A DNA stretch of 64,000 nucleotides, taken from positions 1 through 64,000 of the forward strand of contig JAXHVD010000022.1 in assembly GCA_034189385.1 (NCBI GenBank), read 5' to 3'. A program made the translations under genes and the position numbers. Every line of letters begins with the position of its first letter. Position 1 is the stretch's first letter. Below the pieces are notes generated by a model. That model was not told the DNA's origin. It worked only from the letters and a program-made list of their open reading frames with translations, and did not search any database. Shown piece by piece: positions 2,430-7,202 of the stretch. Origin of the DNA: Thermodesulfobacteriota bacterium. GTDB lineage: Bacteria > Desulfobacterota > Desulfobacteria > Desulfobacterales > C00003060.

Positions 2430-3053
2430 ATGTCATCAAAACTAAAAGAATGTCCAACTTGTGGAAAAGAGGTAGCAAAATCGGCCAAGATTTGCCCCCA
2501 CTGCGGAGAAAAGCTGAAAAAGAGATGGTTCCTCAAAGCACTGATTGCAATCGTTCTGTTGATAATCGCTGTTATCGTACTAGGCCCCTCCGAACAAGAA
2601 AAAGCTACAACCGTGAATTCACCATCTCAAGGCCAGCAAAAGGCTACCTTTCGTATTACGAATGTAAAAAAATATAGCACTGACCACTATAAATATAAAT
2701 CCAAATTGCCACTAGTTTCCATAGCAATCGAGAATACAGGTGCAACAGCAATCACATCCAAGGCACTTAAGTGCCTTGTATCTTTTATAGACCTTGACAA
2801 CAAAAGAATTATTACTCAATATCAACGCAATCTCTTGAATGATTTTAAAGAGATTGCTCCTGGATTTACTTCACCCTTGATTGGCATACAAATTCTTAAC
2901 GTAGAAGCCAAGCTTGTAAAACTCATTGGCCAACGGCCTATCAGCTTTAGGATAAGCGCAACCGTGAAATGTGAACTTAATCAACATGTACAAGAGAAGG
3001 CGGTCATCTTTTATCCTTCAGAATACACTTCGCTCCCAGTTTGGGACTGGTGA
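2430..3053 (+). CDS. Zinc-ribbon plus single-TM membrane protein of mobile elements
   Basis: N-terminal CPTCG...CPHCG, hydrophobic helix, exported C-domain; AGGAGG SD. Confidence 0.8.
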   Translation: MSSKLKECPTCGKEVAKSAKICPHCGEKLKKRWFLKALIAIVLLIIAVIVLGPSEQEKATTVNSPSQGQQKATFRITNVKKYSTDHYKYKSKLPLVSIAIENTGATAITSKALKCLVSFIDLDNKRIITQYQRNLLNDFKEIAPGFTSPLIGIQILNVEAKLVKLIGQRPISFRISATVKCELNQHVQEKAVIFYPSEYTSLPVWDW

Positions 3054-3120
3054 TAGCTGGCCACAAACGAGTAGTCAGAAGACTCCCTTATTACTTTCCC
3101 TACCACATCAGGAGCCACCC

Positions 3121-3723
3121 ATGTCAAAGTACCTTACAGCGAAAGAACTCATGGAACGCTGGAACGTCAAGCACTTCGAGCTTTTTCACGAATACATTAC
3201 AAAGGGTCTCCAGCCCTATGATGACATGGGCAATCCAAGAAGCCCAGCGGACGTATCACTTAGCATAGGGGCACATATAGCACCGCCTGTATGTAAGAAT
3301 TGGGAGGACGTGGAGCTTCCAGAGCCCACGGAACACGTTAGGGAGATTGTTGAAAGAACCGTGTACGGCTCACTGTTCAAGAAAAGCGACGTAGACGAAA
3401 TTGAAAAACAGGGTCGCACCGAGGCAGATACAAAGGAAAGGATTCCCGACCTGCCGCAAGGAAAGAAGAAACCACGCCTATCTGTTGGCAAGGATAGGAA
3501 ACCACGCCCATCTGCGATACATAGAATACGTGTAAGAGCGAAAGCGGAGGAACTTTGGCTTCTCAACCCTGAAGAAACAATTGCTGACATGGCCCACAGA
3601 GACGAACTACACGAGACCTATCTCCATGAAAGGAAGGAGTGCTACTCTGAGGAACAGGTTCAGCGCTGGATACGCGACCTCTGCCCTAATCCTAAACGAG
3701 GAAGACCCAAGAAGAAGACATAG
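3121..3723 (+). CDS. Putative DNA-binding regulator of the element
   Basis: AGGAG SD before ATG 3121; N-terminus YLTAKELMERWNV resembles AlpA/Xis HTH starts; C-terminal HTH-like segment and basic KRGRPKK tail. Confidence 0.6.
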   Translation: MSKYLTAKELMERWNVKHFELFHEYITKGLQPYDDMGNPRSPADVSLSIGAHIAPPVCKNWEDVELPEPTEHVREIVERTVYGSLFKKSDVDEIEKQGRTEADTKERIPDLPQGKKKPRLSVGKDRKPRPSAIHRIRVRAKAEELWLLNPEETIADMAHRDELHETYLHERKECYSEEQVQRWIRDLCPNPKRGRPKKKT

Positions 3724-3814
3724 TCAGATAAATACACCAGCGTTAGCCAGAATCCTCTTCCCAGATGGTTCAGCTCAGCCCATCTCACGTCCCATAAGTT
3801 TTTTCCGCCACAAC

Positions 3815-3940
3815 TAGAAAACCGTTTTCTACGCTAGATGAAAGTATTTTACTTTCCCATCTATAATCCCCACGACACACGGGTTTGTTGTTCCTGAACT
3901 CACCGAAAACACCTCTCTAAAACTAGAAAACCTTTTTCTA
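3815..3940. promoter_or_regulatory. Two copies of a 17-bp palindromic operator-like site TAGAAAACC(G/T)TTTTCTA
   Basis: Copies at 3815-3831 and 3924-3940, both preceded by AAC. Confidence 0.6.
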
Positions 3941-4102
3941 CAGCTTCATCCCGATGATAAGAGTAAAATGTTGTACTATAATGTCTATAGAAACGCTCAA
4001 TAACTGTCTCCGCCATGTTGATGGCCATAAAAAGTGATATCAGTTTCATACGCATCATCTTAACAGCGACCGTCCTCACGTCAATTAGACAAGTCGCTTA
4101 AT

Positions 4103-4225
4103 AGAAGAGGACACAAGACCACAACACAACCTGTGAAGCCCCTCCCAGTCGCTTTGAAGGGCTTCCAGGCAAATCCGACGGACAGATTGTTCCCGTTCGT
4201 CGGGGTGGTTTTGTGTCCTTTTTTT
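4103..4225 (+). ncRNA. Putative three-way-junction structured RNA/leader upstream of the polymerase-like gene
   Basis: 20-bp closing stem 4103-4122/4205-4224 enclosing hairpins 4130-4169 and 4174-4204; G-U pairs favour the + strand; ends in a U tract. Confidence 0.65.
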
Positions 4226-4234
4226 GTCGGGTAA

Positions 4235-5677
4235 ATGCAGGACAGGAAGATTTTAACGAAAGCGAGGAAGTTATGGCCTATGGAATACAAGGAATGGCTG
4301 GAAAGAGCAATCGGGCTCGATTTAAACCTTGGCATCTATAACGACTATGCCATGCGAATAGCAGATATGATTTACTCACAAATTCACCGCTCTAAATGGA
4401 GAGCTGACTATAAGCCAGCCTTCTCCCGCATCATAGCCAATCTAAGAGTGTCTTATGAATTAGGCATCCCGCTTCATTACAGCAGAGACACTAACAGGAA
4501 ATACCAAGAATTCAGCGGTTGGCGCCTTCGGAATCTCGTTGACGCCATGGACGAGGAAAATCTCATCGAACAACATAACGGCTACTATGACGAGGAATTC
4601 GGTGGCAAGGAAACTCGAATGTGGGCGAGCGAAGACCTTATCGGTCTGTTTTTGGCTATACAGCCAGAGGACGTCGTGTTGGACCCTCCAGACCCAGTCG
4701 TAGATCTAAAGGACAGACCGCCAAAGAAGAATGGAAAAAGGCAGAAGCCAAAGAGCGTACCCTATCGGAGAAGCGTTGAAACCGATGCTATGACAAAGGA
4801 GCTGAAACAATACGGCGAGATGATGCTACGTCATCGAGTGGAACTCCACATTTCCAGCGATGATGATTTGTCAGAGAAAGCCGAGGAGCAATTAGTAAAT
4901 CTAATAACTCTGTATCGATATTCCTATCTTAGTATCCTGTATCCTAAGGGATTTCCTAATGCTAGCTATTCAATACTAAACACTAACAACTCTAGTAATA
5001 ACAGAATTGCTACCATTACTTACGAAATAGGCCAGCCGATAGGTATTAGATTCAGATACTGTTGGCTTCATCGAAGTTTCAGCGAAAAATTCACGTTGGG
5101 CGGTAGATACTATGGGGCACCTTGGCAATTCATTGGTGGTGAACTCAGAGCCCACATAACCATAGATGGACAATCGACCGTAGAACCTGATTACTCGGGC
5201 TACCATCTGCGGATGCTCTATCACCTGGAAGGTATCGAGTGCGAGAAAGACCCCTATGGGTTCTGTGAGCCGAAATTGAGAACTCTGTATAAGGACGTTG
5301 CCTTGATAATGATAAATTGTGGAGCAAAGCGATACCTTACCAATAGCATCAAGAAGCGGTTCAGGGACAAGGGACGGGAAAATGAGTTTGGCAAAGAAAT
5401 CTTTGACAAGGGTTTCATTAAGAAGATGGTTGCTGAATGCGAGGCATTCCATGAACCAGTCAAGGGCTTTTTCTGTTCCGACGTGGGTATCAAACTTCAA
5501 TACATCGACAGCGAGATAACATCCTGCGTGTTGGACCATTTTATCAGTGGCGACATTCCAATCCTGCCAGTCCATGACAGTTTTGTCGTGGCAGAGGAAC
5601 ACGGGCAGGTTTTACGCACGGTTATGACGGAGGCGTATGAATACCATTTGGGATTTGAGCCAGTGATAACGGGTTAA
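4235..5677 (+). CDS. Stand-alone superfamily-A (Pol I/T7 RNAP-like) nucleic-acid polymerase
   Basis: GGRYY, motif A DYSGYHLR, motif B RTLYK, LQYIDSEI, motif C VHDSF; no exonuclease or helicase domain apparent. Confidence 0.75.
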   Translation: MQDRKILTKARKLWPMEYKEWLERAIGLDLNLGIYNDYAMRIADMIYSQIHRSKWRADYKPAFSRIIANLRVSYELGIPLHYSRDTNRKYQEFSGWRLRNLVDAMDEENLIEQHNGYYDEEFGGKETRMWASEDLIGLFLAIQPEDVVLDPPDPVVDLKDRPPKKNGKRQKPKSVPYRRSVETDAMTKELKQYGEMMLRHRVELHISSDDDLSEKAEEQLVNLITLYRYSYLSILYPKGFPNASYSILNTNNSSNNRIATITYEIGQPIGIRFRYCWLHRSFSEKFTLGGRYYGAPWQFIGGELRAHITIDGQSTVEPDYSGYHLRMLYHLEGIECEKDPYGFCEPKLRTLYKDVALIMINCGAKRYLTNSIKKRFRDKGRENEFGKEIFDKGFIKKMVAECEAFHEPVKGFFCSDVGIKLQYIDSEITSCVLDHFISGDIPILPVHDSFVVAEEHGQVLRTVMTEAYEYHLGFEPVITG

Positions 5678-5879
5678 TTCCCTGGCAACGAGAGAGCCGA
5701 CCTCTAAAACTCGGCAACTACCCCCGCCTCCTCGGGGGACAAGCTGTGAATCAGCCATCGATTTTTTGAGGGGGATTTTTCAAATGGCTGAAATAGGATT
5801 TCCGAACCAATGGCAAGAGTTGACGCCATTTACACACAATGCTATTCACGCAAGAAATGGGTGCGAGGGAGGAGTGTGT

Positions 5880-7028
5880 ATGAAGGGGTCTATAAGCTAT
5901 GAGAGGGACAGGAAGAGGTGGGTCGTAGTTTGGTATTACGAGGGCAAGGATTACAAGGTTCGCCGATACAAGGGCGAGTTCCTATGGCATAGAACCATCG
6001 CTGAAAAGTGTCTCGCTCTCATCCAGGGCAGATGGGAAGACCATCTCCAAGGCAAATGCCAGTTTCGCATAGAGGAGTTCACGGGAAAAGGTTGGACAGA
6101 CGTAATAGAGTTCTATGAAACCTGGCTGAAAGAAGTAGTTAAAGGCAGTACCAAACCAGCCACATACAAATGTTATCGGTCCTACTTGACAAACTGGATT
6201 CAACCCTTTTTTGAAAAGAATCCTGTGAGGCTCCATGAGATACAGTTGGACACCTTGGTAAAGCTCAAGAACAGCATCACGCTCCAGCCCAAAGGCAAAT
6301 TCAACGTCATGAATGCCTTTCACGCCATGATGGATTACGGATGGAGGTCAAAGAGGATTCCCGAAATGCCACCCTTTCCCAAGAAGAGTGAGTATGGTCT
6401 TAAAGACCCAGAGTGGTCATGGTACACAAGAGAACAAAGGGACATGGTGTTGAACGCCATCCCACAGGAGCACAAACCGATTTTTGACTTTCTGGTAAAG
6501 CATTACCGAAGACCAGGAGAGGCTTGTGCCATGTTTAAGACCGATTATGACGCCATAAACGACGCTTTCTGGATTAGACGGACAATCAGCGACAGGAAAT
6601 TGACTGAAACCACCAAGACAGGGAAAGCCCATTATACCCCTTGTGATAGCGATTTCACCGCCACCGCCCGACGGCTTCTTAACGAAAACCTGGACAGTCC
6701 TTTCCTTTTTGTCAATCCACGCAGCAGGAAGAAGAATGAAGGTGGGCGGTACACATTGGAGAGCTTGAACACTGTTTGGAAAAAGGCGTGCGACGAGGCG
6801 GGAGTTCCGAGGATCTCCCTATACCACGGAACCAAACACACCGCTTGTACGCTGTTTGTGGAAGAAGGCGGAGGCCCCGATGAGCTACAAATTCTGACGG
6901 ACCATGCCCGCCGAGAGTCAGTTGAACGGTATTATAAGATAACTCTTAATCGCAAAAGGCGGATAATGAATCGCAGTAAGGTGATATCACTCTATCCCAA
7001 AGCTATCCCAGGGCCATCAGAGGAGTAA
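5880..7028 (+). CDS. int: Tyrosine recombinase / phage-type integrase
   Basis: RRPGEA (R), KTG (K), YHGTKH (HxxK), LTDH...ERYY (H, Y); GGAGGAG SD before ATG 5880; adjacent to att site. Confidence 0.9.
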   Translation: MKGSISYERDRKRWVVVWYYEGKDYKVRRYKGEFLWHRTIAEKCLALIQGRWEDHLQGKCQFRIEEFTGKGWTDVIEFYETWLKEVVKGSTKPATYKCYRSYLTNWIQPFFEKNPVRLHEIQLDTLVKLKNSITLQPKGKFNVMNAFHAMMDYGWRSKRIPEMPPFPKKSEYGLKDPEWSWYTREQRDMVLNAIPQEHKPIFDFLVKHYRRPGEACAMFKTDYDAINDAFWIRRTISDRKLTETTKTGKAHYTPCDSDFTATARRLLNENLDSPFLFVNPRSRKKNEGGRYTLESLNTVWKKACDEAGVPRISLYHGTKHTACTLFVEEGGGPDELQILTDHARRESVERYYKITLNRKRRIMNRSKVISLYPKAIPGPSEE

Positions 7029-7069: not shown

Positions 7070-7094
7070 GTTCGATTCCCATGCACTTCCGCCA
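7070..7094 (+). repeat. att site: 3' fragment of tRNA-Sec (T-loop, acceptor 3' strand, GCCA)
   Basis: GTTCGATTCCCATGCACTTCCGCCA has the CTTCCGCCA end typical of selC; no 5' half upstream. Confidence 0.8.
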
Positions 7095-7202
7095 CAATTT
7101 CCTTTTATATCAAGATGTTGAGACAGATCGGCCCTTTCGAAACACGTCCCAAAGGCGTTCGTCTCCCGCCATATTATTCTGTGCAGGCCCAATTCATGCG
7201 CT

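Follow-up and report, generated by a model that had tools for sequence, protein, structure and literature searches.

The RNA fold and its anatomy

The locus examined here raises the question of what a long, branched inverted repeat does in front of a gene for a polymerase-like protein. It lies in a 64,000-nt stretch of a Thermodesulfobacteriota genome, referred to below as the window, and a sequence-only reading had described it as a three-way-junction RNA controlling a replicase, for which an attenuator or immunity RNA, a template or primer RNA, and a single-stranded DNA promoter or origin were proposed as possible functions.

RNA fold prediction gives the plus strand of 4103-4228 a free energy of -62.4 kcal/mol (z -7.63), equalled by none of 200 shuffled sequences, and the branched three-way junction is thus borne out as a real fold. 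The predicted structure (4104..4223, plus strand) consists of a closing helix, P1 (4104-4122/4205-4223), and two inner hairpins, P2 (4130-4141/4159-4169) and P3 (4174-4183/4195-4204), with loops of 17 and 11 nt. A 7-nt linker of A and C only, AACACAA (4123-4129), joins P1 to P2, 4 nt separate P2 from P3, and P3 is directly stacked on P1. The 20 bp attributed earlier to the closing helix correspond to 19 pairs in the minimum-free-energy fold, or 20 with A4103; the helix is better described as a 14-bp GC-closed core (4109-4122/4205-4218) that ends in GG/CC at its base and has a duplex energy of -23.0 kcal/mol, extended by the pairing of a U7 tract with upstream purines. Within the whole leader, from either candidate transcription start, the helices form with pair probabilities of ~1.0, and a 238-nt leader has a z of -6.7. 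Such stability is rare in the host: among 1378 gene-upstream regions, eight reach -62 kcal/mol or lower, and one, perhaps the present locus itself, contains an uninterrupted helix of at least 20 bp.

The U7 tract (4219..4225, plus strand) lies directly 3' of the GG/CC base of the core, so that the stretch 4109-4225 has the defining feature of an intrinsic terminator, a GC-closed helix with a U tract immediately after it; terminator scoring graded the combination as terminator-like, and the tract is the predicted termination site. The five non-Watson-Crick positions, from which selection on the plus strand had been deduced, are indeed all G-U pairs on that strand (4104-4223, 4107-4220, 4117-4210, 4174-4204 and 4181-4197), but two of them exist only because U7 folds back on purines further upstream, and another lies at a helix end. 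The minus strand of 4103-4228 also folds (-60.6 kcal/mol, z -6.8, 4 G-U), likewise into a helix with a U-rich tail, and as DNA the two strands are equal (-28.6 versus -28.5 kcal/mol). The argument for the plus strand rests mainly on the U tract, since the minus-strand RNA folds nearly as well and the DNA folds are equal.

The leader and the start of the polymerase gene

The fold stands between promoter-like sites and the polymerase gene. A plus-strand sigma70-like promoter (ATGATA-17-TATAAT, 3954..3982), with a predicted start near 3989, and a second one further upstream on the same strand (ATGAAA-18-TATAAT, 3838..3867) are consensus matches only, and such matches are no commoner in the region than in shuffled sequence (4 found, 3.6 expected). 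Each has a copy of a 21-nt near-palindromic repeat in front of it, one at 3812..3832, 5 nt before the upstream promoter, and one at 3921..3941, 12 nt before the downstream promoter; the two copies are 95% identical and form a candidate operator. A partial third copy occurs before the integrase gene, at 5702-5718, and the repeat as such may be an operator or an arm-type site. The ~120 nt of leader between the predicted start near 3989 and the helix hold no long ORF. A 28-codon ORF with a hydrophobic product (4015..4101, plus strand), whose stop ends 2 nt before P1, is present without a ribosome-binding site and may have arisen by chance. The promoter scan revealed no plus-strand promoter-like site between the U tract and the start codon at 4280, and expression of the polymerase gene would therefore depend on read-through. 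Of the upstream sequences, 3882-3895 pairs best with the 5' arm of P1; as an RNA antiterminator it was rejected, since 45.5% of shuffled sequences offered a partner as good.

The start codon itself had been placed 10 nt beyond the RNA, at 4235. That ATG has no ribosome-binding site, and a strain contig of another study, otherwise ~99% identical, has ATA in its place; a protein collection contains the 465-aa product that begins at 4280, while the 480-aa product is absent from it; the two closest homologs open with MEYKDW, which corresponds to a start at 4280; pairing with the anti-Shine-Dalgarno sequence amounts to -2.2 kcal/mol at 4235 versus -5.9 at 4280; and residues 1-16 of the predicted protein model have pLDDT values below 50. 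Together these results set the start at 4280, which is 54 nt past the end of the U7 tract, and the earlier spacing does not hold. The ribosome-binding region of the polymerase gene (GAGGA, 4259..4268, plus strand) is overlapped by a 7-nt complement of the P2 loop. It also precedes a 22-codon out-of-frame ORF (4273-4341), whose ATG is the better placed of the two for the ribosome-binding site (-8.1 versus -5.9 kcal/mol at 4280) and which could lower or couple translation of the polymerase.

The polymerase and its family

The gene behind the leader (4280..5677, plus strand) codes for 465 aa, predicted to form a winged helix and a core like those of PolA and T7 RNA polymerase, with no exonuclease. 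It matches phrog_4756 (E 8e-57); no family model of Pfam or NCBIfam fits it, and a sequence search of the PDB returned nothing. In the predicted structure (pLDDT 85.8), residues ~41-147 align modestly to winged helices (Z about 6-7), and the C-terminal core aligns to family A DNA polymerases (Z 13.6, rmsd 4.2, 251 residues) as well as to the mitochondrial (Z 11.7), T7 (10.5) and N4 (9.0) RNA polymerases. The catalytic set R291, D319, R349/K353 and D448 is intact, and all 32 sequences compared share R291, D319, K353 and D448. The residue at motif A +5 (residue 324 in the 480-aa frame), which may bear on the choice between NTPs and dNTPs, is His in 29 of 32 homologs and Glu in the phage protein AUR84708; in DNA polymerases the Glu at this position serves as a steric gate. 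N361 is invariant in the homologs, and in related enzymes the matching position is occupied by Tyr.

The protein matches AUR84708, a coding sequence of MG592441, by tblastn (E 5e-8) and by hhalign (99.5%, E 2.9e-22), and both belong to phrog_4756. AUR84708 is the representative divPolA2 protein of Yutin et al. 2024 (PMC11348598), the available text of which considers both a repair DNA polymerase and an RNA polymerase and leaves the substrate of the family unsettled. With homology to AUR84708, an active palm, no 3' exonuclease and an N-terminal globular domain, the feature set of divPolA2 is present here, and on sequence and modelled structure the product is assigned to divPolA2 as a protein with a polymerase fold. 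The gene next to the RNA is accordingly of the kind claimed earlier as far as its fold is concerned, whereas that it is the replicase of its element is something we infer. The two descriptions agree in the active palm, the missing exonuclease and a fold between those of DNA and RNA polymerases. They differ in that the available text of Yutin et al. places divPolA2 only in lytic phages and gives no assignment for its N-terminal domain, while the present genes lie in cellular integrative elements beside integrases and the N-terminal domain aligns to winged helices. No RNA is mentioned for divPolA2 in that text, nor is one beside divPolA2 described in the accessible parts of the literature searched, where the name itself led only to the work of Yutin et al.

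The family is large, with 9,208 clusters at 50% identity (E up to 0.001), and it occurs in 30 of 301 genomes of the host class and in none of 36 genomes of the same genus; a scan of the genome contigs for the polymerase gave three distant loci. The closest relatives are 58-73% identical as proteins (73% for P0001 and P0051, 58% for P0002), and the best loci for which DNA was compared stand at ~34-40%. At E up to 1, homologs of divPolA2 also turn up in 281 phage records, ICP1 and barbaviruses included, some of them with two or three copies. In P0002 the polymerase carries a fused MerR-type HTH domain, and in L007, L008 and L081 such a domain is encoded immediately in front of the gene.

The protein may also be compared with the TV-Pol polymerases, described, in the accessible parts of Iyer et al. 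2008 (PMC2579912) and of the Rice preprint, by a hairpin arginine, two aspartates, an RxxxK motif, the lack of a nuclease, and integrase or resolvase neighbours. All of these anatomical features are present in the polymerase and its neighbours. TV-Pol and the CcPol-MP primases share with it a minimal superfamily-A core without a nuclease, residence in mobile elements and adjoining tyrosine integrases or resolvases; it differs from them in that no D5 helicase or SSB was found among the neighbours scanned and in its alpha/beta N-terminal domain. Among the 281 phage records matched at E up to 1 there is no Microcystis phage; the likeness is one of described anatomy.

An element integrated at selC

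The polymerase gene lies together with a tyrosine integrase gene (5880..7028, plus strand; the frame is open from 5766, and the best ribosome-binding site precedes 5880) inside an element integrated at selC. The right boundary of this element is a duplicated 3' end of selC (tRNA-Sec) at 7070..7112 on the plus strand, 93% identical over 43 nt to the intact tRNA-Sec gene on contig C31; intact selC adjoins rpe in a genome of the same genus (G323), which identifies 7070-7112 as attR. An upstream ORF of ~200 aa (3121..3723, plus strand) matches no family at the cut-off and is a candidate regulator. Recombination genes are frequent beside relatives of the polymerase as well: 148 homolog loci gave 415 neighbouring ORFs, the largest cluster of which (20 ORFs in 20 loci) groups with the integrase of the window, the second (9 ORFs, 6 of them scanned) consists of serine recombinases and the third (8) of Xis-like HTH_17 proteins, the families being assigned from 110 proteins scanned.

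Several observations concern the wider setting of the element. In four further genomes of the genus (G256, G306, G307 and G308), the 3' end of selC lies on the same contig as rpe and 4-32 kb away from it, which makes selC a likely hot spot of integration in the host genus. Beside the intact selC on C31, the minus strand of L031:1385-3370 encodes a 661-aa P-loop protein, which matches no family at the cut-off and is accompanied by an XRE regulator; the P-loop protein is possibly the helicase of the present or a tandem element, and this left part, which is not joined to the contig of the window, may belong to another element. The first 121 nt of the window are a repeat common to the ends of contigs C13, C20 and C33 and to C8, and probably represent an insertion-sequence end that broke the assembly. 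A second integrase start, from the same sample (run X1, record 4), is 85% identical to 5784-6000 of the window with a different upstream region, and is a related element with other cargo.

Search for the fold elsewhere

The fold is so far unique. Rfam at gathering thresholds returned nothing but two tRNAs for the whole window, and at E up to 10 four chance matches on 3600-4400, none of them C4 or int-alpA; the resemblance to C4 and CI suggested earlier found no Rfam match at any threshold tried. A covariance model built from the single sequence of the RNA gave no match in 99 other loci, 98 of which are polymerase homolog loci, no second copy in the genome itself or in 149 relatives, and no match in 173 further loci (72 + 19 + 82), including nine more polymerase homologs. 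All the polymerase homolog loci searched in this way are ~40% identical or less, and the fold is not detectably conserved at that distance. Comparison of the leader by blastn gave chance matches in coding regions in 3 of 100 relatives and nothing in phages; four pattern scans of viral contigs returned 1, 39, 2 and 119 stretches, none confirmed among those examined (80 of the 119 in the last scan); and for a conserved promoter motif across homologs there were only isolated weak matches. For the strain contig (run X2), the rows listed include no substitution in 4103-4228, six in 4237-4640 and seven in the record, and this contig is too close to inform on conservation of the RNA.

Structured leaders in front of related polymerase genes

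The corresponding position in relatives was compared by three criteria, each count being made after near-duplicates had been removed together with loci in which the N-terminus was truncated or the flank short. By the first, terminator sites precede 13 of 64 homolog genes and 35 of 196 neighbours, with no separation; by the second, they were counted at 12 of 64 homolog loci, 37 of 300 host genes and 4 of 192 shuffled sequences. The third, a helix with a U tract at most 200 nt from the gene, is the only one of the three to separate and was written after the sequences had been inspected; with the window left out and at equal GC, it gave 11 of 68 homolog loci versus 13 of 283 ORFs of the same loci (p 0.002). 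Among host genes, 26 of 500 have such a site. If a promoter further upstream is required as well, the counts are 5 of 68 homolog loci versus 2 of 283 (p 0.004). The remaining 57 of the 68 relatives have no helix with a U tract by this criterion. Four loci (L004, L010, L259 and L264, the first and third being related) have a TTGACA-type promoter, a leader of 100-250 nt and a long helix with a U tract before the gene; these helices contain two to six G-U pairs and are better on the sense strand by 4.7-9.3 kcal/mol. In L089 the same position is taken by the Rfam RNA int-alpA, which scores 36.5 bits, over the cut-off, and ends 30 nt before the polymerase gene (1 of 40 loci at gathering). A class-tuned int-alpA model adds L075 (E 0.016; 2 of 100 sources), where, on this sequence match, int-alpA probably fills the slot. 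Taken together, there is moderate support for the view that exchangeable structured leaders often precede divPolA2 genes.

The int-alpA RNA (RF02996) deserves a closer comparison, as it too is a three-way junction, often with a U-rich tail, directly upstream of genes of integrative elements, a combination present in the RNA of the window. It is however ~70 nt long against ~120 nt here, and its UAG junction, its CGAAAA linker and the CCU in its P3 loop are missing from the present RNA, which does not reach the gathering cut-off of 35.8 bits and gives no match at E up to 10 on 3600-4400, nor any on 4103-4228 with the class-tuned model run with filters off. Within the host class, 28 of 150 genomes contain int-alpA RNA; it was not found in the genome under study. 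On the tests run, the leader fold at this locus is not assigned to C4, CI or int-alpA.

A property of int-alpA itself emerged from these searches. Its P3 loop has a complement 5-15 nt beyond the junction, just in front of the ribosome-binding site (L165-L194, L089), with compensatory changes (CCTG/CAGG, CCGT/ACGG, CCTCG/CGAGG). The longest loop match averages 5.2 nt over 28 hits, compared with 4.0 (maximum 4.5) for swapped partners and 3.2 for shuffled ones. This pattern suggests a pseudoknot that would control translation and that is absent from the Rfam consensus line. The source paper of int-alpA is presumably PMC5737381; the accessible main text of that paper does not name the RNA, the function and pseudoknot of which may be treated in its supplement, and the accessible parts of PMC13612085 and PMC12370729 add nothing on its function.

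A leader terminator as the best explanation

The reading that best accounts for these results, and to which we assign a probability of about 0.55, is that the fold is a cis-acting leader terminator or attenuator, formed by the plus-strand RNA, which holds the polymerase and integrase genes down. It draws on the helix and U7 anatomy, the position, the helices in the same slot of relatives, int-alpA in L089 and L075, and two further hairpins with U tracts within the same element. The latter were seen by eye at ~219-248 and 1246-1287, directly before strong ribosome-binding sites, and the element seems to be punctuated by terminators. Of the functions proposed from sequence, that of an attenuator is thus the best supported, by the promoter-like site, leader, helix and U7 tract, while membership in the CI or C4 families is not. 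Host RNA polymerase would start near 3989; P2 and P3 would fold first and bring the strands of P1 together; and P1 would zip to its GG/CC base while the U tract is being made, so that most transcripts would stop near 4225. The product would be a leader RNA of ~237 nt, and divPolA2 and the integrase behind it would be kept low while the element is integrated. Read-through would require that the 5' arm of P1 be held, whether by a protein encoded in the element, by a ribosome positioned where the 4015-4101 ORF ends or by an antiterminated polymerase. In transcripts that continue into the gene, the ribosome-binding region may in addition be covered by pairing with the P2 loop.

As in known intrinsic leader terminators, a GC-closed helix followed by U7 lies between promoter and start codon; the present helix differs from them in closing two nested hairpins, and no alternative antiterminator fold was found. 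A terminator that closes an 82-nt branched loop is unusual. The reading is further weakened by the enrichment on the third criterion only, the 57 of 68 relatives that have no such site, the failure to find an antiterminator and promoters at chance frequency.

Alternative explanations

An unlikely possibility is a plain terminator, not a regulated switch, that serves an upstream unit (a stand-alone small RNA or the mRNA of the hydrophobic 28-aa ORF) or works in both directions as an insulator; expression of the polymerase would then be rare or would start from an unrecognised site. It would agree with the failure to find an antiterminator, with the helix and U-rich tail of the minus strand and with a fold found nowhere else; but the upstream ORF has no ribosome-binding site, the lack of a plus-strand promoter-like site between the U tract and 4280 leaves the gene in need of read-through, and two nested hairpins exceed what a plain terminator needs.

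Slightly more doubtful is a CI- or C4-like immunity or translational switch, whereby a stable RNA of ~120 nt, cut out or acting in cis, would pair through its P2 loop with both flanks and silence resident or incoming copies of the element. The P2 loop is complementary over 7 nt (4149-4155) to 4259-4265, which overlaps the ribosome-binding region of the polymerase gene, and over 6 nt (4148-4153) to 4065-4070; the former is equalled at 40 of 1378 host start regions and by 3.2% of shuffled loops, and the upstream and downstream complements together by 0.7% of shuffled sequences, a weak result, as they were found after the fact. The loop-target duplexes reach only ~-11 kcal/mol, and the linker AACACAA has no complement of at least 7 nt within 3000-6000. 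The covariation of the int-alpA P3 loop with sequence before the start codon is a precedent in the same slot. A CCA-type tail is a feature of RNase P substrates. According to the accessible text of PMC4825925, P4 CI pairs with seqA upstream and seqC downstream, causing termination, and that of PMC5499578 describes RNase P processing of P4 CI and C4 RNA to a short stable RNA and action in trans. The present RNA resembles P4 CI and the C4 RNA of P1 and P7 as a structured leader before replication-type genes of an integrated element, with predicted premature termination and with short candidate complements on both sides; it differs in having no match to the Rfam C4 model (RF01695), in having candidate targets for one loop only, and in ending in a U7 tract, unlike the CCA-type tail of CI- and C4-like RNAs.

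It is quite doubtful, though of interest, that the element uses divPolA2 as an RNA polymerase or primase of its own and that the junction is a sensor, bound by the winged helix or copied, which switches on the polymerase and integrase, the leaders in the slot (junction, long helices, int-alpA) being interchangeable. Very unlikely is an RNA partner of divPolA2, which would serve as template, primer or guide in the manner of a retron but with no reverse transcriptase, or would be a site through which the winged helix regulates its own gene. The adjacency, the intact catalytic residues, the unsettled substrate of the family (PMC11348598, in its available text) and the His at motif A +5 in place of the Glu of DNA polymerases would suit it; an obligatory partner, however, should be conserved, and the fold is absent from the 98 + 9 homolog loci (~40% identical or less, searched with a one-sequence model). 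The slot in relatives holds unrelated structures or none, and its filling by differing leaders is evidence against one obligatory RNA partner. The locus differs from a retron in that the protein has a PolA fold, no reverse transcriptase is present and the RNA is not found beside homologs, so that the retron-like proposal, like that of a hairpin origin, has no support.

Hairpin promoters such as those of N4 have a short stem and a very short loop. A single-stranded DNA hairpin serving as origin, primase site or promoter for the polymerase is the least probable of the proposals, for although an inverted repeat lies beside a polymerase-fold gene whose nearest folds include the N4 and mitochondrial RNA polymerases, the DNA strands show no preference, the loops of 11 and 17 nt are unlike those of short-loop hairpin promoters, the T tract is explained by termination, and the structure is not detectably conserved in the loci searched.

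Implications for the divPolA2 family

In print, as far as the searches reach, divPolA2 is known only from phages, and the present work places it in chromosomal integrative elements, where it is apparently held down by structured leaders. As a leader terminator the fold is a modest result, yet it offers a handle on a large uncharacterised polymerase family, and promoter, leader and gene form a small testable unit. Were the leader bound or copied by the enzyme, this would define the activity of the divPolA2 family and give its more than 9,000 clusters a first ligand.
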